A stretch of 64,000 bases of DNA from positions 45,611-109,610 of the forward strand of contig CADBLE010000006.1 of NCBI GenBank assembly GCA_902795435.1, in the 5' to 3' direction. The notes under the pieces were generated by a model. The model made no database searches. It saw only the letters and a program-made list of their open reading frames with translations, and had not been told where the DNA came from. Origin of the DNA: an uncultured Pseudomonadota bacterium. Its GTDB lineage: Bacteria > Pseudomonadota > Alphaproteobacteria > Rs-D84. A program made the position numbers and the translations under genes. How positions within the stretch are numbered: position 1 is the first letter of the stretch; each line of letters starts with the position of its first letter. Below, one piece after another: positions 2,196 to 55,373 of this stretch.

Positions 2196-3683
2196 ATGAA
2201 GTTTAAATCCTCTATCTTTGCAATTATGACCGTCATACCATGTGTAACATTGTATGTTAATGATGCAAAAGCTACAAATTGTTCTGCTGGTGATTACCAA
2301 TGGGCACTTGCCTGTCACAAATGCTCAAAAGGTTGCTATTGTGAAGGACACGGCGACAATCAATCATGGGGCGCTTTGACGTGTTATCCTGAATCTGGAT
2401 CATATAAACTTGGCGCAAAATCATTCGGTTCTGCTTATGCTCCTCATAAAATTGGCGTATGTCCAAAAGAATTTCCTGAATCAGATGCAGGTACTAACAG
2501 CGAAAGAAATTGTTATAAAGAATACAACGGAAAAAGATTATATAACAGATCGGAAACCTGTAAAGCTGGATGGTATTTTCCGAAAAACTCTAATGGTTGT
2601 GAACCATGTCCAAAAGGGGAAAAAGATTATTGTCCGGGTGGAACCTTTAAACCAAAAACCATCGACGACCAGGGATTATCCCAATGTTCCAGTTCACAAA
2701 AAGCAAATTCAAATCATTCCGGATGCGAAAACAAAGCTATAAATGTAACTTGTAAAGCGGGACAATATTTACAAGCCGGAATGACATATTGCACACCATG
2801 TCGCGACAGATATTATTGTCTTGGCGGATCATTCACTACAGCATCTATTGACCAAGGGTTAAAAAGTTGTACCAACAACAGCAAACCAAATGCAGCAAAG
2901 ACAGCGTGCGTTATCACTTGCAAGGCGGGACAATATTTACCTGGGAAAGCAGCTTCTTGTAGATCTTGCAAAGACAGATATTATTGTCCAGGCGGAACAT
3001 ATTTTGCCAGTCCAAATGTGTTAGCATACAATCGTGACCAGGGTTTATTATCTTGTCCATCTAATAAAGTACCAAACAAGGACAAGACCGCATGTGAATT
3101 TCAAAAAAATGTCCATGATGCAAAACCTGTAGATTCACAACCTGTAGAAAATGGTCCGGAAACATTTAATTGTTCTGTGGGTCAATATTTACCTGCAAAA
3201 GCAAAAAATTGCCAACAATGTAAATCAGGTTATTATTGTACCGGTGGTGATTATGCTTATGCCGATATTGACCAGGGTGCCGCCCAATGTCCTGCTGGAT
3301 TCCATCCAAACGATGTACAAACAGAATGTGAAAAAGATTTACCAAACGAAGTTACATGTGGCGCAGGATTTTATTTGCCATCCAAAACGATGGAATGTAA
3401 AAAATGTACAAATTCTAAACGCTATTGCCCTGGTGGAAAAACTTTCAAGAAAGCGGATTTTGACCAAGGTATCTATAATTGCCCAACAACCAGTGTGGCA
3501 AACGATGATAAAAGCGCTTGCGTTTTGAAATTGTCAAAATCATTCTTGCAATACGGTTCAAATGAAAAAGCATCATTGTCCGAACAATGTTGGGCAAATA
3601 CAGATTCAGCAAAATATAAAATATGCTTGTTTGGAAACCAAGTCGTTTTGCCAGAAGTTGTCATTGACACTGACGCTGAATAA
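2196..3683 (+). CDS. Secreted Cys-rich repeat protein, paralog 1 (ephrin-receptor-like / furin-like six-Cys modules)
   Basis: N-terminal signal peptide (MKFKSSIFAIMTVIPCVTLYVNDAKA). At least 5 modules of the form C-x-[AV]-G-x-Y-[LF]-P-x(3-5)-C-x2-C-x(3-5)-Y-C-x-G-G-x(6-12)-DQG-x3-C-x(8-10)-C. Conserved C-terminal block CVLKLSKSFLQYG...SEQCW...C. Confidence 0.8.
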   Translation: MKFKSSIFAIMTVIPCVTLYVNDAKATNCSAGDYQWALACHKCSKGCYCEGHGDNQSWGALTCYPESGSYKLGAKSFGSAYAPHKIGVCPKEFPESDAGTNSERNCYKEYNGKRLYNRSETCKAGWYFPKNSNGCEPCPKGEKDYCPGGTFKPKTIDDQGLSQCSSSQKANSNHSGCENKAINVTCKAGQYLQAGMTYCTPCRDRYYCLGGSFTTASIDQGLKSCTNNSKPNAAKTACVITCKAGQYLPGKAASCRSCKDRYYCPGGTYFASPNVLAYNRDQGLLSCPSNKVPNKDKTACEFQKNVHDAKPVDSQPVENGPETFNCSVGQYLPAKAKNCQQCKSGYYCTGGDYAYADIDQGAAQCPAGFHPNDVQTECEKDLPNEVTCGAGFYLPSKTMECKKCTNSKRYCPGGKTFKKADFDQGIYNCPTTSVANDDKSACVLKLSKSFLQYGSNEKASLSEQCWANTDSAKYKICLFGNQVVLPEVVIDTDAE

Positions 3684-3704
3684 TATTCGTTCCTGTTTTT
3701 TATC

Positions 3705-3733
3705 TTGTATAAAATTTATATTTTCTGTATAAT
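3705..3733 (+). promoter_or_regulatory. Sigma70-like promoter (TTGTAT, 17 nt, TATAAT)
   Basis: TTGTAT at 3705-3710 and TATAAT at 3728-3733, upstream of the ATG at 3772. Confidence 0.4.
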
Positions 3734-3771
3734 ATGCAATATATATATGGAAGGATTTTTTACTGTAAAAA

Positions 3772-4902
3772 ATGAAGCAAGAAAAATCTGTATTTTTAAC
3801 GGCAACATTGGTGTCTATATTGTCGCTGTATGGTATTGATTCACACGCAGAATCTGTTGTGTGCGGTGTTGGTTATATGTTACCTGCGGGGCATAAATCT
3901 TGCGTTCCATGTGATGATTTCAATCTGAAAAAAGCATCTAAAAACAACCCTGCTACATTATGGTGTCCGGGTGGTAAATTCGTTATTGAACAAAAGCACC
4001 AGGGAATTCAGATTTGCAGTGCGGAAACGTTGGCTGATTCTAAACACAAAAAATGTGAAAAAAAGAAACTTGTTTCATCTCGTTCCGCTAAAAAAACAAA
4101 TTCTTCTGTTAAACCATCTGCAAAAAATTCTGTTGCACGCGCACCCATTGTAAAAACCGATGCGAAAAAGAAAATAAACCCTACAATTAAATCTGCAAAT
4201 TTTGCACAAATAACCTGCAAACCAGGAACTTATTTACCAATGAACGGTAAATCTGCCAATGATTGTAAAAGTTGTTTGGACGGATATTATTGTACCGGTG
4301 GTAAATGGACACCTGACCCAAGTATGAACCAAGGTTTAACAAAATGTGCCGCTGGGTTGGTTCCTGATTCAACAAAAACAAAATGTTATGATCCTAAATC
4401 AAATGAAATAACTTGTAAACCTGGAACTTATTTGCCAATGGACAGTAAATCCTGTGTTTCCTGTTTGGACGGATATTATTGCACCGGTGGTAAATGGACA
4501 CCAAACCCAAGTATAAATCAGGGTTTAATAAAATGCGCTGCGGGTTTGATTTCTAATTCTGATAAAACATTGTGTAAGACACCTGATGCTATGGATTGCA
4601 AGGCTGGCGAATATATACCTGCTAATTCAACAAAATGCGCAAAATGTACGGGTGATAACAAATATTGTCCGGGTGTGGCTGGTAAAAAATCCGATGTTGA
4701 CCAAGGTATTTATTTATGCCCTGACCCAAGCAAAACTAACGCTGAAAAGACCGCGTGTGTTTTGAAATTGGATAAAAACATGATGCAATACGGTCCAGGC
4801 GGACAAACAGTTGCTATATCTGAACAATGTTGGAAAAACATAAGTGCAGAAGAATATATAAAATGTATGTTCGGTGGCAAGGTTAAATTGCCTCAAAAAT
4901 AG
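3772..4902 (+). CDS. Secreted Cys-rich repeat protein, paralog 2
   Basis: Signal peptide, then a K/S-rich linker, then the same six-Cys modules (CKPGTYLPM...CLDGYYCTGGKW...NQGL.KC). Same C-terminal block (CVLKLDKNMMQYGP...SEQCW). Confidence 0.8.
   Translation: MKQEKSVFLTATLVSILSLYGIDSHAESVVCGVGYMLPAGHKSCVPCDDFNLKKASKNNPATLWCPGGKFVIEQKHQGIQICSAETLADSKHKKCEKKKLVSSRSAKKTNSSVKPSAKNSVARAPIVKTDAKKKINPTIKSANFAQITCKPGTYLPMNGKSANDCKSCLDGYYCTGGKWTPDPSMNQGLTKCAAGLVPDSTKTKCYDPKSNEITCKPGTYLPMDSKSCVSCLDGYYCTGGKWTPNPSINQGLIKCAAGLISNSDKTLCKTPDAMDCKAGEYIPANSTKCAKCTGDNKYCPGVAGKKSDVDQGIYLCPDPSKTNAEKTACVLKLDKNMMQYGPGGQTVAISEQCWKNISAEEYIKCMFGGKVKLPQK
4210..4575 (+). repeat. Intragenic tandem duplication of one Cys-rich module (units 4210-4407 and 4408-4575)
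   Basis: ITCKPGTYLPMNGKSANDCKSCLDGYYCTGGKWTPDPSMNQGLTKCAAGL versus ITCKPGTYLPMDSKSCVSCLDGYYCTGGKWTPNPSINQGLIKCAAGL. The nucleotide sequences are also visibly similar. Confidence 0.85.
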
Positions 4903-4916
4903 GTCTTTAAAAGCGG

Positions 4917-6212
4917 ATGAGAGAAAGTATGATTTTTAATAAGATTCTTCTTTTATCATTATCTGTTTATGCCTTTATCGGTATTGAATCCGTGATGGCT
5001 GCTTGTTACAGTTCTGCCGCGGGTGAATATTGTTTAACAAATAAAAGATATACCTGCCCTGCGGGATGTTATTGCGGTTCTGCATCAGAACCAGATGGTG
5101 CATTAGACAAGAAAGGAAACAAACAAAAAGACATTTATCAAGATGAAGTTGCGGCGTGGTGTAAAAACGGTTCATCTTGTCCTTGGTCTGCGGGTGGCGG
5201 ACAATGTGGAACATCTGATAAAGCAAAGGTTTTTAGATGTCCTGCGAATTTCAGTTTTTCTGACAATGGGGCAAAAACAATAGAAAATTGTTATACACAT
5301 CATGATGGCGATTATAAAAAACCAAAACTGTATTATAAAAAAATCACATGTTCTGCAGGTCAATATTTGCCAAAAAATTCAGATTCTTGCACATCATGTA
5401 AAGATGATACGGGCGCATATTGTCCAGGTGTAAAAAATGTAGTACCTTCTACCTCTATTGACCAGGGATTAAACATTTGCCCAGACAAGCAAAAACCTAA
5501 TTCTGAAAGAACCGCTTGTGAAGACACTTCTATTCATTGTGACGCGGGTCAATATTTACCTGCAAATTCCACTTCGTGTGTCGCATGCAAAGATAAATCT
5601 TATGCATGTACAGGTGGTAAATTTTATCAAGAATCTTTTGACCAAGGCATAACCACTTGTGGCGATGGATATGCACAGAATGATGATAAAACACAATGTA
5701 TATATGTGGCAGATACAGATTATAATTGTGAAGTTGGTTATTATTTACCAGCACACGGAACAAAATGTGAAAGATGTGCTTCCAGTAAAAAATATTGTCC
5801 AGGCGGAACGTTTCACTATTATGATTTAGACCAAGGTATATATACATGCCCGTACACCAGTGTGGCGAATTCAGACCGTTCTGCATGTGTTTTGCGTTTA
5901 AGTCAAGATTCTATGAAATATGGTCCAAATGGTGCAAATACCCCATTATCTGAACAATGTTGGAACAAAAAAACAAGAGAAGATTACACAAGATGTATAT
6001 ATTCTGAAAAAGATACGAAACTAATCCAACCTTTATTAAAAAAGCCATTGGCTAATGTTGGTATTCTTGACAATATAATCGACATAAAAAACACTAATCG
6101 TTCTTTGCCAATGGCAACCCCAGAAGACAAAGCATCAAAATTCCGCAATGCCCCTGTTGTCATTGAAAAAAATTCTGTTGTCCAGGCGCTGGTAGATTCT
6201 GTAACGAAATAA
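4917..6212 (+). CDS. Secreted Cys-rich repeat protein, paralog 3
   Basis: Signal peptide (alternative start at 4929, MIFNKILLL...). Has the six-Cys modules (CSAGQYLPKNSDSCTSC..., CDAGQYLPANSTSCVAC...) and the shared block CVLRLSQDSMKYGP...SEQCW, followed by a unique tail of about 70 aa. Confidence 0.8.
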   Translation: MRESMIFNKILLLSLSVYAFIGIESVMAACYSSAAGEYCLTNKRYTCPAGCYCGSASEPDGALDKKGNKQKDIYQDEVAAWCKNGSSCPWSAGGGQCGTSDKAKVFRCPANFSFSDNGAKTIENCYTHHDGDYKKPKLYYKKITCSAGQYLPKNSDSCTSCKDDTGAYCPGVKNVVPSTSIDQGLNICPDKQKPNSERTACEDTSIHCDAGQYLPANSTSCVACKDKSYACTGGKFYQESFDQGITTCGDGYAQNDDKTQCIYVADTDYNCEVGYYLPAHGTKCERCASSKKYCPGGTFHYYDLDQGIYTCPYTSVANSDRSACVLRLSQDSMKYGPNGANTPLSEQCWNKKTREDYTRCIYSEKDTKLIQPLLKKPLANVGILDNIIDIKNTNRSLPMATPEDKASKFRNAPVVIEKNSVVQALVDSVTK

Positions 6213-6222
6213 TTATTTCTAT

Positions 6223-6252
6223 TTGACTATATCTTATGTGCTTTTGTATAAT
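6223..6252 (+). promoter_or_regulatory. Sigma70-like promoter (TTGACT, 18 nt, TATAAT) for the 6270-11031 operon
   Basis: TTGACT at 6223-6228 and TATAAT at 6247-6252, in the 57-bp gap after paralog 3. Confidence 0.5.
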
Positions 6253-6269
6253 ATCAACCAACTGAACAG

Positions 6270-7253
6270 GTGTTTGATATGTTTTTTATTCCGAAATTTC
6301 TGAAACCTAAAAAAAATCTTGTAAATTTATTACGCGTGTTGGCTGGTGTAAATAAAAAACCAAATATACAAAAATTGATTAAATCTGTTGATGTTTATAA
6401 CGAACCTTTGCAAAAGGTATTCTTGCTGGCGTCGGTGGTATCTAAATTCGACAAATCTTTGTTATCAAAGCAACTGGCCGGGGTTTTAAGCCATGAAAAA
6501 TTTGGGAATGCTATGAATATGGCTGCTTTCCAAAAAATCTGTAAATTATATAACAACAATGGCATTGTACCACTTGCTCAAAAGGGATTGGTGCAAAAAT
6601 TATTATATCCACAGAGCACCCGCCCTATGAATGATGCAGATTTCGCGGTTCCTAAAAATGTTTACCGTAATGCGATAAATTTGGCCACCACAGACGGTTT
6701 TCATATCAACCATGATATGTTATTCAGTGCTGATTTACAATTACGTGACCAGGGCTGTGTTGATGTCCATTACGCTTTATTCAAAGGGGCAAATCCACGC
6801 ATGGACGATGAAATATTTAATCGCGCATCACATTTAAACACAATGGGGTGTGATGTTTTGATTCCGTCCCCAGAAGACATCATTGTTATAATTATGTGCG
6901 AATTTTATGGGAACTTTTTGTTTGAAGCGGGTTCCGCAGATACAGATACAAATAAAATATTTGATTCGCACCCACAATGGGTATTGGATACATATAAAAT
7001 AATTCACGATTATCCTGAATTAAATTGGGGCAAAATTATGAAGACCGCTAAAATGTCTGGATATGATTATCAAATCAGAATTTTAACCAAATTATTAAAC
7101 AAAATTATTCCAAATATTATTCCACACCACGCACAAAAAGTTATGGAATACATGTGTCCAGACCGCGTTGTAAAACATTATCTGAAACGCGATAAAAAGT
7201 TGGTATATATGCATCAGCAAAGTTATAAATACTATCAAATGGAAAACCTGTAA
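6270..7253 (+). CDS. Uncharacterised nucleotidyltransferase-family protein (PF14907-like)
   Basis: GTG start (alternative ATG at 6279). KGLVQKLLYPQSTRPMNDADFAVP resembles the lKG..lY...R...D.D.lV signature of the family that co-occurs with HprK-like and PqqD genes. The stop overlaps the next start (TAATG). Confidence 0.55.
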   Translation: MFDMFFIPKFLKPKKNLVNLLRVLAGVNKKPNIQKLIKSVDVYNEPLQKVFLLASVVSKFDKSLLSKQLAGVLSHEKFGNAMNMAAFQKICKLYNNNGIVPLAQKGLVQKLLYPQSTRPMNDADFAVPKNVYRNAINLATTDGFHINHDMLFSADLQLRDQGCVDVHYALFKGANPRMDDEIFNRASHLNTMGCDVLIPSPEDIIVIIMCEFYGNFLFEAGSADTDTNKIFDSHPQWVLDTYKIIHDYPELNWGKIMKTAKMSGYDYQIRILTKLLNKIIPNIIPHHAQKVMEYMCPDRVVKHYLKRDKKLVYMHQQSYKYYQMENL

Positions 7254-8290
7254 TGCCTACCAATTACATAAAAAATCTTGGTCAAAAAAATTTTGATGAA
7301 ATTTGTAACAAATTTCAAAATGTAATTATGCAAAACAAACCTGTTTGGCGTGGCACAGTATATATCGGCGAAAAACCTTTGTATATTGAATGTAATGTAA
7401 AATGGTTGGCTGAAAAAATTCCTTTGTATTTCGTAAAGGCAATAGAAAACACAAAAATCAACGGATGTAAAGAATTATACATATTGAACCATGGCGTTCA
7501 TAAATTCGTTCCATCTCCCGATTGTTGCACCACAGATTTAGCATTTGTTGGTTCAAATATTTATAAACACCCAGATATAATTATTCATAATAATTGTGTG
7601 TTTGTCAGAAAAAATCCTGTATTTTATCTGTCTATTACCGAAGAATACGGAACTAATTTTTACCATCTGGGCGAAAACCATTTATTGATGCGATTATTAA
7701 ATTACATATTTGATGATGATTCTAATATTGTGTTGCATGGTGCGGCGGTTGGAAATGAAGATTACGGTGTTTTAATTACGGGCTTAAGTGGTTCTGGAAA
7801 ATCTACATTGTCCGCATATTGTTTGGCAAATGGTATGAAATTTGTTGGTGATGACAGAATTGCTCTGCACCGTGAAAACAATACTGTTTTTGCCAACCCG
7901 ATATACACAACATTATCTTTAAACGAAACAATAGACGGTGTAAAAACAACTTTTTCATCGCGTCCAAACGGTTGCAATAAAGATGTTTATGTCGTTGATA
8001 AATCCCAAATTTCAAACCATATTCCAATTAAAGCAATTATTGAACCAATTAAATCTGGGAAAGACAAACCAATTATAGAAAGATGTAATCTATCCCCTAT
8101 TTTAACACGCATTTGTATGGATTATTCGTATTTCAGTTTATTATCCAGAAACACAAATCCTATGAATGATTACAAGAAAATTTCAAACTTGCTTACCGGG
8201 GTAGAATCATTTAACATAGAATTATCAACAGACATAAACGAAAATGCAAAAGCAATTTGTAATTTAATTTCAACCAAAGGGGTTATTTAA
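7253..8290 (+). CDS. HPr kinase/phosphorylase C-terminal-like serine kinase
   Basis: LHGAAVGNEDYGVLITGLSGSGKSTLSAYCLANGMKFVGDDRIAL matches the P-loop plus DD motif pattern of HprK-related kinases. Confidence 0.7.
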   Translation: MPTNYIKNLGQKNFDEICNKFQNVIMQNKPVWRGTVYIGEKPLYIECNVKWLAEKIPLYFVKAIENTKINGCKELYILNHGVHKFVPSPDCCTTDLAFVGSNIYKHPDIIIHNNCVFVRKNPVFYLSITEEYGTNFYHLGENHLLMRLLNYIFDDDSNIVLHGAAVGNEDYGVLITGLSGSGKSTLSAYCLANGMKFVGDDRIALHRENNTVFANPIYTTLSLNETIDGVKTTFSSRPNGCNKDVYVVDKSQISNHIPIKAIIEPIKSGKDKPIIERCNLSPILTRICMDYSYFSLLSRNTNPMNDYKKISNLLTGVESFNIELSTDINENAKAICNLISTKGVI

Positions 8291-8712
8291 TGTATAAAAA
8301 GAATCCAGATTTTTTCTCTGATATAACTGGCTCTCAGGTTATTTTTATAGACATGGAACAAGGTGTTTTTTATTTGCTACCTCTGTTTGCGAGTTTGGTG
8401 TTGAAATTTTTAATCAAAGGTTTTGATTTATCACAAATCAAAGAAACTTTTTCTAAAATCCCTGAAATACCAAGCGATTATGAATCACGTATAGATTCTG
8501 TATTGGAAAATTTGTTGAAATTCAATTTAATCGTTGAATCTGACACACCAGATACAATAGAAGATGTTGTATTAAACGATTTAACATATCAAGATTTACA
8601 AGAAGAAGATTTTGCTTTTGTTATTACACCATCAACAGATGTCCAAAAATTATTATTGGACGACCCTATTCATGATGTATCTTTGGACGGTTGGACACCA
8701 ATTGAAAAATGA
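8290..8712 (+). CDS. PqqD-family (RiPP recognition element-like) protein
   Basis: 140 aa. The pattern GVFYLLPLFASLVLKFLIKGFDLSQIKETF...VLENLLKFNLIV fits PqqD. Its start overlaps the upstream stop (TAATG). Confidence 0.55.
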   Translation: MYKKNPDFFSDITGSQVIFIDMEQGVFYLLPLFASLVLKFLIKGFDLSQIKETFSKIPEIPSDYESRIDSVLENLLKFNLIVESDTPDTIEDVVLNDLTYQDLQEEDFAFVITPSTDVQKLLLDDPIHDVSLDGWTPIEK

Positions 8713-9350
8713 TTTCTGTTATAATACCTGTGTTTAATGGCGAAAAATATCTTGATGAATGTCTATCAAGTGTCAATCACACGGGTATTGAAATAATCGT
8801 TGTAAATGATGCCAGCACAGACAATTCAATCACTATCGCAAAAAAATACACAGATAAAATTATAACTATATCTAAAAGCGGGCCTGTTATCGCACGAAAT
8901 ACAGGACTGAAATCTGCAAGTGGCGAATATGTTATGTTTATGGATGCAGATGATGTTTTGGTTGACAATGCTTTTGATATTTTAACACAACAAATAAAAG
9001 ATTTTGATGCGGTTATTGGATTACGACAAGATTTCATTTCCCCAGATTGTGTTGATAATTACACACCTGTATCAGAACAAAAAAAATCTTCACATGGTGT
9101 TATTTCTGGGTGTGCGTTGCTCAAAAAAACTGTGTTTGATACTGTTGGTGATTTTGATAGTGATTTAATGTGTGGCGATGGATATGATTGGTTATTGCGT
9201 GCCGAAAAAAACGGTGTAAAAATAAATAAAATAGATTCTGTTATATGTCGTCGCAGATTACATAATTCTAATATGGGACGCACATTGAAAGCCCAAGAAT
9301 GTGCCGACTATGTAAAAATAATAAGAAAACATTTTACAAAGAAGAACTGA
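8709..9350 (+). CDS. Family 2 glycosyltransferase
   Basis: ISVIIPVFNGEKYLDECLSSV...VVNDASTDNS...MDADD (DxD). ATGA overlap with the upstream gene. Confidence 0.85.
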   Translation: MISVIIPVFNGEKYLDECLSSVNHTGIEIIVVNDASTDNSITIAKKYTDKIITISKSGPVIARNTGLKSASGEYVMFMDADDVLVDNAFDILTQQIKDFDAVIGLRQDFISPDCVDNYTPVSEQKKSSHGVISGCALLKKTVFDTVGDFDSDLMCGDGYDWLLRAEKNGVKINKIDSVICRRRLHNSNMGRTLKAQECADYVKIIRKHFTKKN

Positions 9351-10327
9351 TGACAAAAATCATTCATGTTTGTGTTGCCGCTGATAATAATTACAAACTG
9401 CCATTGACGGCGGTGCTGAATTCTTTTGTAAAAAATGTTAAAAACAAAACTGTTTTACATATTTTATATACGGGCTTTTCTGAAAAATATAAAAACAAAT
9501 TAAATCGTTTTTGTTGTGGGACAAATATCTCTCTTGATTTCAGAGATATGTCGAAATACGATTTTGATTTTCACGGTCTGGATATGCAACATTGGACACG
9601 TGCTATATTTTACAGAATTATGATTCCAGAAATGTTTTCTGATTTAGACCGTATGATTTATCTGGACGGCGATACTTTGGTTCTGGACGATTTATACGAA
9701 TTATACAACACACCTATGGATAACGATTTTATGTTGGGCATGGTTGTGGACAGGTTTTCCTATAAAACGCGTATTGGCGAATTGAAAACATCTAATTATT
9801 TCAACAGCGGTATGATTTTATTTGATATAAAAAAATGTCTTGAATTTAATTTTTCTGAAAAATGTGTTCAATGGATACACGATAACCCGGAAACCGCTAA
9901 ATTCCCAGACCAAGACGCAATAAACATTATTGCTGACAATAAAATTTTGAGAATAAACAACATATACAACAAACAATTTGCAACAAACGATTCAATAGAT
10001 TGGTCCAAACAATATGTTGTCGCACATTTCTTGTCTGCTATAAAACCATGGCATTATAATGCGCCTTCGTTTTACAGCAAAAAATACAGAAAATATATTC
10101 CAAACAAATTCAGTGCTTTCAAAATTTATGTATCTCAAAAAATACACGAATTAAAATATTTCTGTTTTCATGAAAAATATGTAATGAAATTAGTAAACAT
10201 GAAAATCGTTGAACAAGTTAAATTTTATGTGTTTAATATGTGTATTAAAACAAAAACTTTGGATACTAAAAAACCAAATTTAATAGATGTTCTGCAAAAC
10301 AACAAAGGTGCCAGAAAATGTATATAA
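9350..10327 (+). CDS. Family 8 glycosyltransferase (LgtC/RfaJ-like)
   Basis: MTKIIHVCVAADNNYKLPL..., YLDGDTLVLDD (DxD), FNSGMILFD. The ATG at 9350 overlaps the TGA of the GT2 gene. The ORF track start at 9299 is probably upstream read-through. Confidence 0.8.
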   Translation: MTKIIHVCVAADNNYKLPLTAVLNSFVKNVKNKTVLHILYTGFSEKYKNKLNRFCCGTNISLDFRDMSKYDFDFHGLDMQHWTRAIFYRIMIPEMFSDLDRMIYLDGDTLVLDDLYELYNTPMDNDFMLGMVVDRFSYKTRIGELKTSNYFNSGMILFDIKKCLEFNFSEKCVQWIHDNPETAKFPDQDAINIIADNKILRINNIYNKQFATNDSIDWSKQYVVAHFLSAIKPWHYNAPSFYSKKYRKYIPNKFSAFKIYVSQKIHELKYFCFHEKYVMKLVNMKIVEQVKFYVFNMCIKTKTLDTKKPNLIDVLQNNKGARKCI

Positions 10328-11031
10328 ATTCAGAAAAAATTACACAAATTGTAATCAGAACACTGGATAAACCTGTGTCATACGATTTATTTGAAAATTT
10401 TATACGCAAATCACCTTTTATTCGCCAGATTGCATTTATTGGCAAAGGAATCTTTGATTCACCTGATTTTACAAAAATACTTGATTTATGTCGTCTAAAA
10501 AGTATTGCTTTAATTTTCGGTGAAATGGCACGCAATGTTCCTATTGAAATCGTTGATGCAATGGTTCGTGCAGGTAATATAATCGCAGTAAATATACATG
10601 ACGGCGACCCAAATATAAACAATATGATTGAATTAAAGAACAAATATCAAATGCCTGTACCAGAGGTAAATGCAATTATCCAAACAGAACCACGCACACC
10701 GCAAGATTCATTGTCTGAATCATCATACGCTTTCTATAATCTCGCAGACGATAAAAACAATATACCATGTTGGAATTTATTATATGAACCAATGATTGAA
10801 TTTAATGGTTCCCTGTTGGGTTGCTGGGCAAATCCAGATAAAAAACACCCTATCAATGCATTTGAATTGGGTATGGAATCAGCATTAAACAAATCCCCTT
10901 TTATAAACATGATAAAGATGCTTAAATCTGGAAAAATAAATACAAAATGTCCATGTGCCAGATGTCCTGTATTTGCCAGTTTGGTTTGGGACAATTCAAC
11001 CATAGATATTTATACCAGAACACAAAAATAA
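10318..11031 (+). CDS. Radical-SAM-fold / SPASM-like protein lacking the CxxxCxxC cluster motif
   Basis: IAFIGKGIFDSPDFTKILDLC...IAVNIHDGD resembles the rSAM barrel. The C-terminus CWNLLYEPMIEFNGSLLGCW...KCPCARCP looks SPASM/twitch-like. The N-terminal region (IVIRTLDKPVSYDLF) has no Cys triad. Confidence 0.45.
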   Translation: MYINSEKITQIVIRTLDKPVSYDLFENFIRKSPFIRQIAFIGKGIFDSPDFTKILDLCRLKSIALIFGEMARNVPIEIVDAMVRAGNIIAVNIHDGDPNINNMIELKNKYQMPVPEVNAIIQTEPRTPQDSLSESSYAFYNLADDKNNIPCWNLLYEPMIEFNGSLLGCWANPDKKHPINAFELGMESALNKSPFINMIKMLKSGKINTKCPCARCPVFASLVWDNSTIDIYTRTQK

Positions 11032-11033
11032 AA

Positions 11034-11285
11034 TTATTCTTGCGGTTCATCCTCTTGGTTCTCTGGGATAAATTTGAAAAAATCATTTGGACACGAATTT
11101 GTCGCTTTCAATATTTTTGCAATAGACAACATAGATGGCCAATGTGGTTGTCCATAAAGAGATGAACGTTTGCTTCTGTTAAAAGAAGTTGGATCTAAGC
11201 CACTATATTTTGCCAACCCAGATACAGAAAAACCGTGTTCCTTTGCGAACAATTCTATTGCTTGCCATATTTGATTATGTGTCAT
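11034..11285 (-). CDS. HTH transcriptional regulator (repressor N-terminal domain only)
   Basis: MTHNQIWQAIELFAKEHGFSVSGLAKYSGLDPTSFNRSKR...WPSMLSIAKILKAT resembles the DNA-binding N-terminus of alphaproteobacterial S24/LexA-like repressors. No peptidase domain is present. Confidence 0.6.
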   Translation of the reverse strand: MTHNQIWQAIELFAKEHGFSVSGLAKYSGLDPTSFNRSKRSSLYGQPHWPSMLSIAKILKATNSCPNDFFKFIPENQEDEPQE

Positions 11286-11473
11286 TTTGTTTTCCTCCTG
11301 TTATTCACACATATTATGTTTATATGCTACCATATAACGATACTATTTCAACATATACAACCACAATTAGAATCTAATCCTAAATTTTACGACAAAACAC
11401 ACTATTTTATAAAAACACAAACGATTCGGATTTCTTGTATTTTTAGCATTTAATTTGTGGTATAATATGAATT

Positions 11474-11728
11474 ATGAAAAACACCCTGCATCTTGTCTTG
11501 AAACATCATTGGTTTGATAAAATCGTATCTGGCGAAAAAACTTCTGAATATCGTGTGTGTTCTGAATATTGGAACAAGCGTCTAACAAACAACCACTATG
11601 ATACCGTCATTTTTCACAAGGGCTATACAAACACCACCGCAACATATAAAATTATATCCATCGCAATCACAACAGAACCAAACGATTTGCATCTGCCAAA
11701 ATGTTGGGAAATCAAGTTAAAGAAATAA
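11474..11728 (+). CDS. ASCH (PUA-like) domain protein
   Basis: LVLKHHWFDKIVSGEKTSEYRV... is typical of small ASCH-domain proteins. Confidence 0.55.
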   Translation: MKNTLHLVLKHHWFDKIVSGEKTSEYRVCSEYWNKRLTNNHYDTVIFHKGYTNTTATYKIISIAITTEPNDLHLPKCWEIKLKK

Positions 11729-11929
11729 CCCCCACACAACTACCGGTTGTATGAATATATTCTTACACACAATAAACCGCAATATAAATTCATATAAAAT
11801 TCTACCACAGGTTGAAATTATGTTTTTTACACGCTTATACCTAGTAATAATCTTGCATATTATTTTTTATCTATAATTTCACAATGAAAATATTCTAAAG
11901 ATAAAAAACATAAAAATTTTATAAAACAC

Positions 11930-11958
11930 TTGACTTGCATGCCAAATAGTTATATTAT
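11930..11958 (+). promoter_or_regulatory. Sigma70-like promoter for tRNA-Asn (TTGACT, 17 nt, TATTAT)
   Basis: TTGACT at 11930-11935 and TATTAT at 11953-11958, about 12 nt upstream of the tRNA. Confidence 0.5.
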
Positions 11959-11970
11959 AAGCGCAGTTAT

Positions 11971-12046
11971 TCGGGCATAGTTCAGTCGGTAGAACAACGG
12001 ACTGTTAATCCGTATGTCACTGGTTCGAGTCCAGTTGCCCGAGCCA
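11971..12046 (+). tRNA. tRNA-Asn (anticodon GTT), CCA encoded
   Basis: Acceptor TCGGGCA/TGCCCGA. Anticodon stem-loop CGGA-CTGTTAA-TCCG. T-arm ACTGG-TTCGAGT-CCAGT, then G + CCA. Confidence 0.92.
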
Positions 12047-12116
12047 CAGATTACAAGGCTTTCAAGACTTTTTGTTTTGAGGCCTTTTTTCTTAAATCCT
12101 ACTAAAATCCAACTAA
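12041..12116 (+). repeat. Left island junction (attL-like): tRNA-Asn 3-prime end plus 60-bp direct repeat
   Basis: 12057-12116 (GGCTTTCAAGACTTTTTGTTTTGAGGCCTTTTTTCTTAAATCCTACTAAAATCCAACTAA) matches 33678-33737 at 58/60 by eye. GAGCCA(C)AGATT also recurs at 33663. Weaker similarity continues for about 30 bp further (ATTAATTTCTGTTAATTATGGTTAAT versus ATTAATTCTGGTTAAATCTGGTTAAT). Confidence 0.85.
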
Positions 12117-12361
12117 ATATATTAATTTCTGTTAATTATGGTTAATATCAAATATGTTAGTATTCTGTTATTTTTATGATTTTATTCCCAAACAAATCCC
12201 GATAAAGACACTCTTATATTTGCTATATTGATTATTTGGAATCAAAATTTATCAAGAATATGATTATAGAGATATAAGGATATAAAATAAATAATATATA
12301 GATTGATTTTTACGGTAAAATTCGCTACATTCTCAGCAGAACAAACATATAGGTAAAAATT

Positions 12362-13606
12362 TTGACAGCCGAAGTTATAACTTATAATAAAAATGCAATC
12401 GCTATGGCAGCAGATAGTGCTGTAACCGTGTATGGTAGCAAAACCTATAATTCTGCAAACAAATTATTCATGTTATCTAAATATCACCCTGTAGGAATTC
12501 TGATTTATAATTCTGCATCTATAAATGGTATATATACGGAGATTTTAGTAAAGGAATACCGTAAACAACTAGGAAAAAAATCTTTTGATTCACTCAAAGA
12601 ATATAAAGATAATTTTATATTGTTTTTACGAGATTTTTTACAAACCCACATTAGTGACGAAGATAAAAAATTTAGTATAATAATCCAATTAAATAATCTT
12701 TTCGATTATGTATTTAATCGCTCCGATTTTCCCCAAATTAATCCAGGAGAAAATTTCTTTAATGTCGCAAATAAATTTCTAGAAGGACTAACAACAACTA
12801 TAAAACAAACGTATAATATTGAAAAAGAACTTGATTTGTCTGGAATTGATTTAGCACAAGAAATAAAAAATATCTTTTTGTATCGCATGAAATTACCAGA
12901 CTCTGAAGAATTGAATGGGTTGGTTAGTAAACTAATTGATATTTTTGCTTATTATATCAACATCCCATACAACCCTAATATTACAGGTATAGCTATTTGT
13001 GGTTACGGAGAAAAAGAATTTGCCCCAAAAATATATAATTTTGAAACATTGGGTTTTATAAATAACACTTTTAAAGTTAAAGACATTGGGGATAATGAAA
13101 GCCAAGATCAAGGGGTTATACCCCTTGCACAACGAGATATGACAGATTTGTTCATACAGGGTGTAGATTATAGGGTTTATAGTTTTATTACAGAACAATA
13201 CGAAGCTTTTATTGAAGGTATTGCTGATAAAATAAAAAAAGCAGATGTAGATTTATCCAGATATATAGGAGCTAATAAATATGTGATTTCAAAAAGAATC
13301 AATGAAGTACTTAACAAAGAAAAAGTTAAACCTTTATTGGATGTTATAGGTATTTTATCAAAAGATGAACTTGCAGAACTATCAGAAAGTTTGGTAAATT
13401 TGCAGGCGTTAAAACACAAAATGTCATTGAATCTTGAAACTGTTGGCGGACCTGTCGATGTAGCAATAATTTCAAAACACGATGGTTTTATTTGGAAAAA
13501 AAGAAAACTATATTTTGACAAAGAGCTGAACCCTCATTTTTTTGAAAATTACTTTTCTGAAGAATCTATTTGTGGTATACTAAAAAACAAAGAAGGAGGA
13601 AAATGA
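12362..13606 (+). CDS. Proteasome beta-subunit-like Ntn hydrolase with large insertions (414 aa)
   Basis: TTG start with AGGT 9-12 nt upstream. After Met removal the N-terminus TAEVITYNKNAIAMAADSAVTVYGSKTYNSANKLF places Thr1, Asp17 and Lys33 exactly as in 20S beta subunits (compare [35 protein letters not shown]). The C-terminal GGPVDVAIISKHDGF matches SGGMIDVAVITRKDGY, and ICGYGEKEFAPKIYNFE matches LLVGGIDTAPHVFSID. Confidence 0.7.
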   Translation: MTAEVITYNKNAIAMAADSAVTVYGSKTYNSANKLFMLSKYHPVGILIYNSASINGIYTEILVKEYRKQLGKKSFDSLKEYKDNFILFLRDFLQTHISDEDKKFSIIIQLNNLFDYVFNRSDFPQINPGENFFNVANKFLEGLTTTIKQTYNIEKELDLSGIDLAQEIKNIFLYRMKLPDSEELNGLVSKLIDIFAYYINIPYNPNITGIAICGYGEKEFAPKIYNFETLGFINNTFKVKDIGDNESQDQGVIPLAQRDMTDLFIQGVDYRVYSFITEQYEAFIEGIADKIKKADVDLSRYIGANKYVISKRINEVLNKEKVKPLLDVIGILSKDELAELSESLVNLQALKHKMSLNLETVGGPVDVAIISKHDGFIWKKRKLYFDKELNPHFFENYFSEESICGILKNKEGGK

Positions 13607-52292: not shown

Positions 52293-55200
52293 GTGAAAAA
52301 TATCTATAATATTATATTGAAAACCATTGGTTTTTCGGCCTTTTGTTTATTGTTTAATACAAATTCGTTTGCGGCGTATTCAGATGCTGAATGTTTTGGT
52401 GGCACAGATGGTGTACCATTTCCAACAGCCAATCTCACCATTGTAGATTCTAGTAGCGAAGTTGCTTATGGTTCTACGGTATTAAATGCCGAAACTTTAC
52501 TCTATAACAACCCTAAACAAACATCTGCGGTTTTACACGAAGACGGCATTATTAAATGTACCGGCACGACCAATTGTACTTTAAAAGATTATAAATCATC
52601 TGGCATGGACGAAAATGCTTATACATCAGAATTAATACAATGGATTGATGGCATGTCTTGGTCTGTCAATTTCCAAGGAAAAGGAACGGTTAGTGGTTAT
52701 GCTTTTTGTGGTCCATCTGGTTGGTCAACAGATAAACAAATAAAAACTGGTAAGGTAGGTGGCACTTATAGTGGTTGCGGTTGTACAATAACTGATTTCT
52801 CTGACGAAAATACTACTGTTGCACAACATACATTTGTTGTTAATAAATACACACAATCATCAGGCGATTGGCAACAGAAAACTAATGACTGCCGTTCTAA
52901 ATGTCCGGCTTTGTGTGCAAACCGTATAGCAACAGATTCCGCGTTCCGTCAAATTTTATTCCAAGAATGCCCTGTATTTGAAACTGGTGGTGGTACTGGT
53001 GGTGAAGACACCCCAACCCAAATACATTGTGATGCCGGTTCTTATTTACCAGCGGGCGCAACAACATGTCAAACATGTGATGGCACAAATAATTATTGTG
53101 AAGGCGGTGATTTCTATCAAGATAACACTCAAAACCAAGGTATTGCAGAATGTCCATTTGGTTTTGAACCAAACAACTCTCATTCTGCATGTTCACCTTT
53201 GTCTATTATTTGCGAAGCTGGTGAATATTTGCCTGCTACAAAGACAATATGTGAAAAATGTAAAGACAATTATTATTGCGAAGAAGACATATTTAATTAT
53301 TCCACAACAGAAAACCAAGGATTAAAGACATGCGAATTTGGTTACGAACCAAACAGCGGACATACCGCATGCCAATTAAAATCTATACATTGTGGTAATG
53401 GTTATTATTTACCAAAGAATTCATTAACATGTACTGCATGTATCGGATTCGAATATTGCCCTGAAAACACATATAATTTCTCGGCTTCTGATGAACAAGG
53501 TAAAAACATCTGTGGTGCTGGAACGGTTCCAAATGAAAATCATTCTGCCTGTATTGAAAAAACAATCGTATGTCCTGCTGGAAAATATTTACCAAATAAC
53601 AGCCATGACGAATATGATTGCCAATGGTGTCCAGATCCTTATGAAGCCGGCGATTATTACTACTGTCCTGGCGGTGAATATGATGCAAATTATCCATCAA
53701 ATAATGGTATGAATTTATGTCCAGAATATTCATACAGCGAAGAAGAATCTTCATACTGCACATGTAATGAAGGTTACACAACCGATGGTAAAACCGCAAA
53801 TGCATCAAACAAAACAACAACTACAACTGCTTGTGTTCCAGAAGGTTCCGCTGTCTATAATGCAAGTTATTATTGCGACACAGACACAGAATCTTTAGGG
53901 TCTGCAACAATAAGCGTTGGTTCTTTGTTCACTTTGATATCAAATATTGATTTTGATAATCATGTGTTATGTGAAAAATCTGGTTATGATTTCGGTGGTT
54001 GGCGTGATGAATTTGGAAACGAATATTCCGCAGGTGATTCATTCACGTGGAATTATGAAACAGATGTCAGATTTACAGCCATTTGGAATCAAAAACCTGT
54101 TTATACCGTATCTTATTCATGCGGCAGTGACGCAACGGGTGGATATGCACCTGATTCAGACGATGTTGTTTCTGGTGACCAATACACAACACGTGCAAAC
54201 ACATGTGAAAAAACCGGAAATAATTTCTTAGGTTGGGTATATAATGATGACGATTTATACGAAGCCGGCGAAACATTCACATATAATTATAACTCTGGAA
54301 TCACACTTGTTCCATTATGGGAAGAAATAACCATAACTTGCCAACCTGGATTCTGGGCAACTGGAAACGCAACAACATGTGATTCAGAATGTTTGCAAGG
54401 ATACTATTGTGGTGGTGAAACATATAAATTTGACGGACAAACACACGGTCTGACAAAATGTGATTCAAATTTACCATCATGGGCATCAGCACATGTGTAT
54501 AGCGAATTTGGTGCTACATCCGAAAACGATTGCAGAATTTCTGTCGCGATGGGCGTTTATGCAGACGAAGACGGCCTGCACCAATGCGAAGAAATGTTCT
54601 ATTGTCCTGGGTTCAGCGGTTCTGTTGTTGAATTCAATTCTGCACTGAACAATTCTGGCTTCGTTGGTTTGGCAGATTGCAGTGATGCACCAAACTATAA
54701 AGATTGGGGTTGGACACATGGTATAACCAGCGCACAAGGTTCAACATCTGTCAATGATTGCAAAATCATTATCGCACCTGCGACATATATGGACACAGAA
54801 GGCGTATTACACCAATGCCCTGCTGACCATTTCTGTCCTGGTCATACATACGAATATATTGATGCAGATACATTCTTTGTTGATTTGGTTTCATTAGGTG
54901 CTGGTATCTATGAATGCCCTGTGAATGCAACATCTGACAGCGGTTCAACATCTTGCCATTGTGCAGATGGATATATGTTAAACACAGACACAGGTATGTG
55001 TACCGCAGAATGTGGCGCGGGATTCTATCTGCCAACAAATGCAAACGCATGTATAGAAGTTGGCGCGGGATATTATTCACCAAACGGCGATTCTGAAAGA
55101 TACAAATGCCCAGATTATTTAACAACCACTGGTTCTGGCATTGGTGCTGATGAATACAGCGATTGCGGTAGAACATTACATATTGGTAACGAAACATTGC

Positions 55201-55373
55201 GTATGCGCAGTGTCCGTAAAACAACACCATCATTAAATGTAAAAATTGGAAACGCAGTATATTATGGCGACATGACATTGGTTCCAACAAATATAAATGC
55301 GAACACAACCAAAAAATTACGTGTAAAATATGGTAATGTTGAACAATATGTTCATGACACTACAATAGATTAA
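52293..55373 (+). CDS. Large secreted Cys-rich repeat protein, paralog 4, with Listeria-Bacteroides-type repeats
   Basis: GTG start after AGGGAG. Signal peptide. Six-Cys modules (CDAGSYLPAGATTCQTCDGTNNYCEGG..., CEAGEYLPATKTICEKC...). Two Flg_new-like repeats (CEKSGYDFGGWRDEFGNEYSAGDSFTWNYETDVRFTAIW; CEKTGNNFLGWVYNDDDLYEAGETFTYNYNSGITLVPLW). The C-terminus differs from paralogs 1-3. Confidence 0.8.
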   Translation: MKNIYNIILKTIGFSAFCLLFNTNSFAAYSDAECFGGTDGVPFPTANLTIVDSSSEVAYGSTVLNAETLLYNNPKQTSAVLHEDGIIKCTGTTNCTLKDYKSSGMDENAYTSELIQWIDGMSWSVNFQGKGTVSGYAFCGPSGWSTDKQIKTGKVGGTYSGCGCTITDFSDENTTVAQHTFVVNKYTQSSGDWQQKTNDCRSKCPALCANRIATDSAFRQILFQECPVFETGGGTGGEDTPTQIHCDAGSYLPAGATTCQTCDGTNNYCEGGDFYQDNTQNQGIAECPFGFEPNNSHSACSPLSIICEAGEYLPATKTICEKCKDNYYCEEDIFNYSTTENQGLKTCEFGYEPNSGHTACQLKSIHCGNGYYLPKNSLTCTACIGFEYCPENTYNFSASDEQGKNICGAGTVPNENHSACIEKTIVCPAGKYLPNNSHDEYDCQWCPDPYEAGDYYYCPGGEYDANYPSNNGMNLCPEYSYSEEESSYCTCNEGYTTDGKTANASNKTTTTTACVPEGSAVYNASYYCDTDTESLGSATISVGSLFTLISNIDFDNHVLCEKSGYDFGGWRDEFGNEYSAGDSFTWNYETDVRFTAIWNQKPVYTVSYSCGSDATGGYAPDSDDVVSGDQYTTRANTCEKTGNNFLGWVYNDDDLYEAGETFTYNYNSGITLVPLWEEITITCQPGFWATGNATTCDSECLQGYYCGGETYKFDGQTHGLTKCDSNLPSWASAHVYSEFGATSENDCRISVAMGVYADEDGLHQCEEMFYCPGFSGSVVEFNSALNNSGFVGLADCSDAPNYKDWGWTHGITSAQGSTSVNDCKIIIAPATYMDTEGVLHQCPADHFCPGHTYEYIDADTFFVDLVSLGAGIYECPVNATSDSGSTSCHCADGYMLNTDTGMCTAECGAGFYLPTNANACIEVGAGYYSPNGDSERYKCPDYLTTTGSGIGADEYSDCGRTLHIGNETLRMRSVRKTTPSLNVKIGNAVYYGDMTLVPTNINANTTKKLRVKYGNVEQYVHDTTID

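Follow-up and report, generated by a model that had tools for sequence, protein, structure and literature searches.

What does a peptide-tailoring operon act on when it carries no gene for a precursor? This question is raised by six genes (g1 to g6) at positions 6270 to 11031 of a 64,000-nucleotide stretch of contig CADBLE010000006.1 (positions 45,611 to 109,610, forward strand; assembly GCA_902795435.1 of an uncultured alphaproteobacterium), hereafter called the window. A sequence-only reading had described the genes as enzymes of the kind that tailor RiPPs (ribosomally synthesised and post-translationally modified peptides), with no visible precursor, and had proposed as substrates the cysteine-rich secreted proteins encoded directly upstream. 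Our analysis points to another candidate. The missing precursor is probably g3 itself, a small protein of the PqqD type whose own invariant tail is a candidate acceptor, and the statement that no precursor is visible is thus probably wrong. In our best explanation, the operon represents, for Candidatus Enterousia, an uncharacterised cassette that is widespread and akin to the sets that recognise and tailor phosphorylated lasso peptides and linear polyphosphorylated peptides (LPP). As for its function, we tentatively favour, as something close to an even call, a self-contained phospho-glycosylation cassette that acts on the g3 tail, with g6 as a non-radical accessory subunit.

The genes and their promoter are as follows.

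6223-6252, forward strand: sigma-70-type promoter TTGACT-18-TATAAT, matching at 11 of 12 positions, the best match within 6000-12500
6270-7253, forward strand: g1, nucleotidyltransferase; open reading frame (ORF) open from GTG 6270, likely start ATG 6279, homologues begin MFFIP...
7253-8290, forward strand: g2, HprK/P-like P-loop kinase
8290-8712, forward strand: g3, 140-amino acid protein with the fold of PqqD and of RiPP recognition elements (RREs) and with an extended C-terminus; putative scaffold and acceptor
8709-9350, forward strand: g4, small soluble GT2 glycosyltransferase
9350-10327, forward strand: g5, GT8 glycosyltransferase; ORF open from 9299, homologues begin M(D)T(I)H.C.AAD
10318-11031, forward strand: g6, 237-amino acid protein derived from a radical S-adenosylmethionine (SAM)/twitch enzyme, without the SAM-cluster loop

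All six genes are co-directional, and their junctions read, in order, TAATG, TAATG, ATGA, TGATG and a 10-nucleotide overlap. Re-reading of these junctions confirmed the coupling described earlier, with the starts of g1 and g5 adjusted to 6279 and 9350, the latter ATG being the one that yields the TGATG junction with g4. There is no intergenic room for a precursor gene inside the operon. The proposed promoter was borne out as well, being the best match of the region and kept in relatives: nine or more related loci have a TTGAC[TCA]...TA[TCA]AAT pair at the equivalent position 5' of g1. Four of these have a terminator hairpin between the upstream gene and this conserved promoter. Taken together, the promoter and the terminator that follows the upstream cysteine-rich gene in relatives indicate that the operon is a transcription unit of its own. 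In the window itself, no such hairpin was found in the 57-bp spacer upstream of g1. None of the six proteins has a transmembrane segment, and all six are cytoplasmic.

A search of 185,579 species genomes detected 14 further loci with this operon, where the six genes follow in identical order wherever the contig allows. The six ORFs are intact across the related loci, at identities of 29-92%.

The central protein, g3, gave no Pfam match even at E<=10, and a profile search of PDB sequences returned nothing meaningful. Its AlphaFold2 model (pLDDT 85) shows the strand-and-three-helix topology of an RRE. Using Foldseek, the model matched the RREs of the lasso B1 proteins TbiB1 (5v1u) and 6jx3 with a probability of 1.0 and TM-scores on the target of 0.73-0.79; the next matches were the RREs of SuiB, TigE and CteB. 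Sampled relatives of g3 exceed the threshold of PF05402, while g3 itself has no match to this model. The fold is followed by a tail, DDPIHDVSLDGWTP, which is invariant and predicted disordered. Two segments of the protein are important for what follows.

8611-8634, forward strand: g3 residues 108-115 (FAFVITPS), degenerate counterpart of the motif [FYW]xxPx[LIV], aligned with the family motif
8650-8700, forward strand: g3 tail, residues 121-137, LLLDDPIHDVSLDGWTP, predicted disordered from residue 128

The tail was identical in 19 of 19 close homologues and in 14 of 14 loci, and pLDDT values fall below 50 for residues 128-140. It is at once the most conserved and the least ordered part of g3, whose C-terminus ends GWTPIEK. 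In G031, a genome of another family of the same order, the g3 homologue has an overall identity of 25%, and the tail is kept as IDPVHDVSADGWKP.

To place g3 in a wider family, we used profile searches. The first, against 1.84 billion representatives, gave 873 clusters at E<=1e-3, which is a lower bound for the size of the family; almost all members have 135-160 amino acids and align end-to-end. A second search collected 1236 proteins (clusters at 90% identity), annotated at most as ‘PqqD family protein’. The signature of the family is a PqqD domain with a C-terminal extension ending D-P-[IV]-H-[DE]-V-x2-3-G-W, in which the residues D, P, H, V, G and W do not vary; g3 conforms to it through DDPIHDVSLDGW, and the D-P-type motif occurs only once in its genome. 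Among 262 family members examined, 243 carry the D-P-[IV]-H-[DE]-V tail, and in 215 of these GW follows three residues after the motif.

The same family shows a second regularity. The motif [FYW]xxPx[LIVFAM] lies exactly 18 residues before D-P in 197 of the 243 tail-bearing members (81%). Motifs of the [FYW]xxP type are the RRE-binding motifs of lasso and LPP leaders (PMC13381572). In g3 this position is taken by residues 108-115, where F108 is nearly invariant and a β-strand is predicted at 113-115 (pLDDT about 80-90).

Tailed PqqD proteins are found next to the same types of enzymes in several phyla. In Geobacteraceae and Caldilineaceae, the gene after the tailed PqqD gene encodes a HprK/ScmC-like kinase, with small GT2s, GT4s, a PF14907 protein and an ATP-binding cassette (ABC) exporter in the cluster. 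On a third contig, the next gene encodes a 605-amino acid protein with kinase-like and GT2 parts, after which GT2 and GT4 genes stand in a row. Neither a lasso cyclase nor a B2 peptidase was found in these three contexts. To extend the comparison, 37 loci from rumen and gut metagenomes, none shorter than 9 kb, were inspected, with the following contents.

HprK-like kinase: 35 of 37 loci
PF14907 nucleotidyltransferase: 32 of 37 loci
GT2: 37 of 37 loci
GT8: 15 of 37 loci
HIT: 12 of 37 loci
ABC exporter: 10 of 37 loci
g6-like: 1 of 37 loci

The commonest order in these loci, nucleotidyltransferase, kinase, RRE and GT2, matches that of the window operon, and the partners also occur fused in single proteins, namely kinase with RRE-tail (P0162) and nucleotidyltransferase with kinase. 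The tail is therefore the best candidate acceptor, as it is invariant, predicted disordered and family-defining, and as other phyla have it together with these enzymes. Within its own class the tailed form is present in about 5 of 400 alphaproteobacterial genomes of a class-level sample. The operon occurs in 6 of 151 sampled species of the genus Candidatus Enterousia, and the relatives carrying it are rumen and gut metagenome-assembled genomes. Our literature searches on PqqD with HPr kinase and glycosyltransferase, on PF14907 and on SynChlorMet found no description of this cassette.

Several variants of the cassette were observed along the way. In P0162, the kinase stands in front of the RRE-tail and the tail is degenerate, without its Trp. 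P0130 and P0177 have two or three tandem PqqD domains, only the last of which is tailed. In one metagenome locus (L089:9995-11353; we number loci with L and genomes with G) an RRE-like N-terminus runs into a 452-amino acid protein, apparently an RRE with a further domain, and a radical SAM gene with a TAT signal lies two genes 5' of the nucleotidyltransferase gene of this locus. In 12 of the 37 loci (L078-L097), a divergent HIT gene is located two genes 5' of the nucleotidyltransferase, kinase and RRE genes, and a HIT gene is also present inside the G031 locus. The HIT nucleotide hydrolase/transferase may be part of the pathway; it is absent from the window operon.

Regarding the enzymes, the domain assignments of the earlier reading (PF14907, HprK-like, PqqD, GT2 and GT8) proved correct by Pfam scores, motifs and the fold of g3. 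The first gene, g1, encodes a nucleotidyltransferase of PF14907 (NTP_transf_5; 72 bits, E=6.7e-20) with a D-x-D motif (NDADF) in 15 of 15 orthologues; a sequence-only search of PDB with g1 found nothing meaningful. The kinase g2 consists of a C-terminal kinase core and an N-terminal part of about 140 amino acids without matches. It resembles HprK-type kinases at the P-loop only (PF07475, 32.1 bits with a cut-off of 33.3), and matches the HprK chains 1jb1 and 1knx of PDB at E about 1e-4. Its GLSGSGKS sequence (GxSGxGKS) is kept in 15 of 15 orthologues and FVGDD in 14 of 15. GT2 membership of g4 is clear (PF00535, 97 bits; DADD in 15 of 15 orthologues); its best near-full-length NCBIfam match is TIGR04283, which is MftF-like, and it is 33-36% identical over the full length to small GT2s adjoining tailed PqqD genes (Caldilineaceae, other contigs and G031). 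Likewise, g5 is a GT8 enzyme (PF01501, 136 bits) with a D-x-D motif (LDGDT) in 15 of 15 orthologues.

The last protein, g6, again has no Pfam match even at E<=10, and its profile search of PDB by sequence gave nothing meaningful. In its AlphaFold2 model (pLDDT 81), five beta/alpha units precede a C-terminal domain that bears Cys. The top Foldseek matches were the SPASM maturase SuiB (E=2e-4, probability 1.0), the twitch radical SAM enzyme SpeY and DesII, at TM-scores of only 0.39-0.46 and with generic TIM barrels close behind. A CX3CX2C SAM-cluster motif is present in 0 of 14 orthologues. The g6 homologue of G031 retains CSLGCPRC, at the spot where all Enterousia copies have a 12-residue deletion, and has weak matches to PF04055 (E=0.029) and to NF033640 (twitch radical SAM, 8.9e-5). 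What is left in all copies is a set of cysteines.

10768-10965, forward strand: g6 cysteines resembling those of an auxiliary cluster, C151-x12-G-x4-C169 ... C213-x2-C216, invariant including G031

Both CX9-15GX4C and CxxC were found in 14 of 14 orthologues. With only four invariant Cys, g6 is nearer to a twitch than to a seven-Cys SPASM domain. It is a twitch-like radical SAM derivative that has lost SAM chemistry and is still conserved, and the label ‘SPASM-like’ given to it earlier was essentially right in view of the CSLGCPRC of G031 and the auxiliary cysteines. In G031 the whole system is divided over two contigs: C17 (L035:5686-10031) carries the g6-like gene, a fusion of nucleotidyltransferase and kinase of 712 amino acids, a HIT-family gene and a GT8 gene, and C13 (L016:7440-8518) carries the g3-like gene with its tail and a g4-like GT2 gene, the two being coupled.

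The gene anatomy, its conservation, the assigned folds, the co-occurrence and the fused proteins are what we have shown. They can be assembled into a scheme whose chemistry at each step we infer, as we do the acceptor residue and the docking in cis. The RRE of g3 would hold its own leader-like segment in cis and thereby present the tail to the partner enzymes. Next, the HprK-like kinase g2 would phosphorylate the tail, for which the candidate site in this lineage is Ser131 in HDV-S-LDGW. The PF14907 enzyme g1 would then attach a sugar to this phosphate, a step that is reported for pseudomycoidin, and the soluble GT2 and GT8 enzymes g4 and g5 would extend the glycan. With its four auxiliary-cluster cysteines kept and the SAM cluster lost, g6 could serve as a non-radical accessory subunit, either as an Fe-S scaffold or in peptide binding. 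As all proteins are cytoplasmic and neither an exporter nor a peptidase is linked, the product in this genome would either be a protein-linked phosphoglycan inside the cell or serve as an intermediate for unlinked genes. A bolder version is that RRE, leader and core are united in one self-presenting polypeptide, on the invariant tail of which soluble enzymes would build a phosphate-linked glycan. Such priming of glycan synthesis by a protein, in the manner of glycogenin, would take place in many bacterial phyla; in Enterousia it would be aided by a former radical SAM protein turned into a non-radical Fe-S subunit, with a possible link to the adjacent cysteine-rich surface proteins. We consider this extension doubtful.

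Several findings weigh against the proposed action on the g3 tail. The most important concerns the acceptor. Ser131 is the only hydroxyl residue of the conserved tail and is not kept in the wide family, since at the corresponding position 152 of the 243 members have D, 29 have S, 16 have E and 13 have T; its invariance is limited to the order of the window genome. The acceptor may consequently not be the tail, and this is the main weakness of our interpretation. The leader-type motif of g3 lacks its proline (F108-A-F-V-I) and is one residue short, the strict motif being absent from the subfamily, and the docking in cis would follow from a predicted strand only. The kinase g2 is under every curated kinase threshold, with NCBIfam scores of 40 bits for TIGR04355 and 32.3 bits for TIGR04352, both below cut-off. 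In addition, the related nucleotidyltransferase LppN was inactive in a heterologous host, in a single experimental study (PMC13381572). Finally, the cassettes of other phyla sit inside surface-glycan loci with ABC exporters, which fits a role in a glycan pathway equally well.

Comparison with known systems helps to define the operon. The closest are the LPP clusters of Bacillota, which consist of the precursor LppA, the kinase LppK, the RRE LppB, the SipW-like peptidase LppS, the exporter LppD and the nucleotidyltransferase LppN (Popov et al., Nat Commun 2026, PMC13381572). The LPP or lasso precursor has a Ser that HprK-like kinases polyphosphorylate; guidance comes from a discrete RRE, which binds a [Y/W]xxP leader, and LppK places several phosphates on Ser3 of the core (PMC13381572). 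The operon shares with these clusters a stand-alone RRE, an HprK-like kinase and a PF14907 nucleotidyltransferase (g3, g2 and g1, which are coupled) without a macrolactam cyclase, the recognition, presumed for g3, of a [Y/W]xxP-type leader by the RRE and the frequent location among glycosyltransferase genes. In contrast to them, it has no LppA precursor with YxxPxVLxHQxIxFETxxS, no SipW-type peptidase and no linked MsbA-type exporter; its RRE carries the leader-like segment and the conserved tail in the same chain; GT2 and GT8 belong to the core set, to which a radical SAM relic is added; and the host is alphaproteobacterial, not one of the Bacillota.

Phosphorylated and phosphoglycosylated lasso peptides (paeninodin with PadeK; pseudomycoidin with PsmK, PsmN and B1) rely on the same kinase and nucleotidyltransferase families, and in pseudomycoidin the PF14907-type enzyme adds hexoses to the phosphate (PMC8498205). 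The kinship with this trio that was suggested earlier is thus supported: a B1 RRE, an HPr-kinase homologue and a nucleotidyltransferase have counterparts here, and Ser phosphorylation followed by a hexose on the phosphate is the precedent for our scheme. The lasso sets differ in that the window genome has no cyclase and no B2 protein, and the known kinases act on a C-terminal Ser of a separate precursor.

More distant likenesses were also considered. The HPr-rel-A system (kinase A, TIGR04352; PqqD_rel_X, TIGR04353) pairs an HprK-like with a PqqD-like protein, but membership, as proposed earlier, did not hold, since g2 reaches 32.3 bits with a curated cut-off of 200 bits for the kinase, and g3, for which the cut-off of the PqqD protein is 35 bits, gave no hit at E<=0.01. 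SynChlorMet, with the HprK-like ScmC, the PqqD-like ScmD and the radical SAM proteins ScmE/F, is a combination resembling the ancestral form of the operon as seen in G031. Against identity with SynChlorMet or HPr-rel-A, the relatives match ScmC and ScmD only faintly and the models leave the tail uncovered. In mycofactocin biosynthesis, the RRE MftB, the radical SAM/SPASM protein MftC and the GT2 enzyme MftF act on a conserved C-terminal peptide. The operon likewise combines an RRE, a protein of radical SAM/SPASM type and a small GT2, as an analogy only; it differs by having no equivalents of MftA, MftD and MftE, by a g6 without SAM cluster and by the presence of kinase and nucleotidyltransferase.

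According to the chief rival explanation, the cassette would serve as a module in the synthesis of lipo-oligosaccharide, capsule or exopolysaccharide, with a glycan or glycolipid as end product rather than a modified peptide. The tailed RRE, the kinase and the nucleotidyltransferase would then be a primer, regulator or scaffold, and GT2 and GT8 ordinary glycan builders. Related cassettes do lie amid GT2 and GT4 genes, a sulfotransferase gene, MsbA-type exporters, UDP-sugar enzymes and LpxB/DegT, an Enterousia relative (L015/L028) runs on into a GT8 gene and three GT2 genes, and the single NCBIfam match of g5 is a lipopolysaccharide alpha-galactosyltransferase; LPP clusters also lie in capsule loci (PMC13381572). 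What makes us regard this explanation as unlikely is, on the one hand, that neither a lipid-carrier (polyprenyl-phosphate) priming transferase nor flippase, polymerase or ABC exporter domains were detected in the six proteins, which have no transmembrane segment, or in their immediate neighbours. On the other hand, no role other than that of a peptide-binding adaptor is so far known for the PqqD/RRE fold, and the invariant tail with its leader motif at a fixed distance has no obvious role in such a pathway. The operon might instead be an orphaned lasso or LPP tailoring set, with precursor, cyclase or peptidase and exporter encoded at another place or in the 10% that the assembly lacks (0.95 Mb, 15 contigs, 90% complete). 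Room for this is left by the incompleteness of the genome and by four MsbA-type exporters and two MacAB-TolC sets elsewhere in it, the nearest PF00664 gene being about 37 kb from the operon. Nevertheless, searches of the whole assembly gave no match to PF00733 (the asparagine-synthase-like lasso cyclase; the search control was positive in 13 of 14 genomes), to PF13471 (the B2 transglutaminase-like peptidase), to PF05402 or to TIGR02228 (the SipW-type peptidase, there being no peptidase in the operon either). A six-frame search for the LPP-type leader motif found three chance matches only, all interrupted by stops. The 14 related loci and the contexts in other phyla have no precursor, cyclase or peptidase genes nearby either. 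The earlier statement that the operon lacks cyclase, leader peptidase and exporter thus stands, extended for cyclase and peptidase to the genome. As the six ORFs are intact and conserved, a self-sufficient unit is favoured over an orphaned set, which we judge very improbable.

The proposal that the full-length cysteine-rich proteins are the substrates, which the PqqD protein would recognise and which would undergo phospho-glycosylation in the cytoplasm ahead of their export by Sec, has to be weighed against the distribution of these proteins.

2196-6212, forward strand: three genes for cysteine-rich secreted proteins with signal peptides and 26-41 Cys each, adjoining the operon upstream

The distance of 57 bp from the last of these genes to g1 was confirmed (66 bp if ATG 6279 is the start). 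A same-strand cysteine-rich ORF, with a signal peptide, lies directly upstream in 12 of the 14 loci whose upstream side is visible. By a simple criterion only 42 of the 818 ORFs of at least 100 amino acids in the genome (about 5%) are cysteine-rich, most of them with signal peptides, so that the neighbourhood speaks for the proposal, and cytoplasmic glycosylation of Sec substrates is known elsewhere (HMW1C, serine-rich-repeat adhesins). The loci are, however, syntenic descendants and the 12 of 14 therefore not independent observations. When co-occurrence was examined, the cysteine-rich family was present in 81 of 151 genomes of the genus and the operon in 6 of 151, and g1 was absent from five genomes that have the family, most of them with matches into the C-terminal block. 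Divergent copies of the operon adjoin unrelated cysteine-rich ORFs or none, the 37 metagenome cassettes have no cysteine-rich upstream partner, and the operon has its separate promoter and, in relatives, the terminator. A common leader-like motif of the [FYW]xxP type is absent from the three proteins. Only local synteny supports cysteine-rich substrates, and we think them quite unlikely. The proposed action of the cassette on the g3 tail is the reading that we prefer.

Some observations on the cysteine-rich genes and the surroundings of the operon are added here. In L023 and L024, cysteine-rich ORFs are found on both sides of the operon. In L018, L020, L021 and L027, a GC-rich hairpin with a T-run closes the cysteine-rich gene within 100 nucleotides 5' of g1. 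More members of the cysteine-rich family lie far from the operon, at 53007-55232 of the window (98617-100842 of its contig, C6) and at 14104-27007 of contig C5, among them giant proteins of 1026, 1703 and 2594 amino acids. From tRNA-Arg (760-836) towards tRNA-Asn (11971-12046) there follow, in order, an orphan gene of 307 codons, the three cysteine-rich genes and the operon. Several related loci share an upstream flank gene (f13), which in the window lies just before tRNA-Arg. The product of the orphan gene, of 307 amino acids, was tried as a flank marker for an empty-site test and rejected, as the gene is itself accessory (1 of 80 genomes of the genus, on another contig).

Downstream, small ORFs at 11032-12361 were considered as precursors and dismissed, since this segment holds, besides tRNA-Asn, an ASCH-like gene and a regulator of the XRE type encoded on the minus strand.

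11034-11285, reverse strand: XRE/Cro-type helix-turn-helix gene between operon and tRNA-Asn, with a homologue near the operon in L013 and L027
11474-11728, forward strand: short ASCH-like gene between operon and tRNA-Asn

PADLOC gave no defence-system match. In L018 (12733-17266), L020, L026, L027 and L021, a convergent set of MacB, ATPase, membrane fusion protein and TolC genes follows directly 3' of g6. In our genome the operon is separated from this neighbourhood, as both MacAB-TolC copies are on contigs C8 and C4; being convergent, apparently housekeeping and unlinked here, MacAB-TolC was rejected as a dedicated exporter.

As a whole, the cassette escapes the tools for RiPP genome mining, even with a signature protein of at least 873 sequence clusters across phyla. 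These tools assume a separate precursor gene and a class-defining enzyme, and the cassette has neither. If the tail is the acceptor, g3 would be the first RRE that carries its own leader and core, and RiPP-type recognition would be linked to the assembly of phosphoglycans. If true, this could account for the position of LPP and paeninodin clusters within capsule loci and show what the so far inactive PF14907 enzyme requires. The six-gene unit of Enterousia is compact and consists of soluble proteins only, which makes it a convenient target for reconstitution, and its g6 documents a radical SAM enzyme that is still under selection after loss of the SAM cluster. That such an operon is kept in the 0.95-Mb genome of a gut symbiont suggests a role at the interface with the host or the community.

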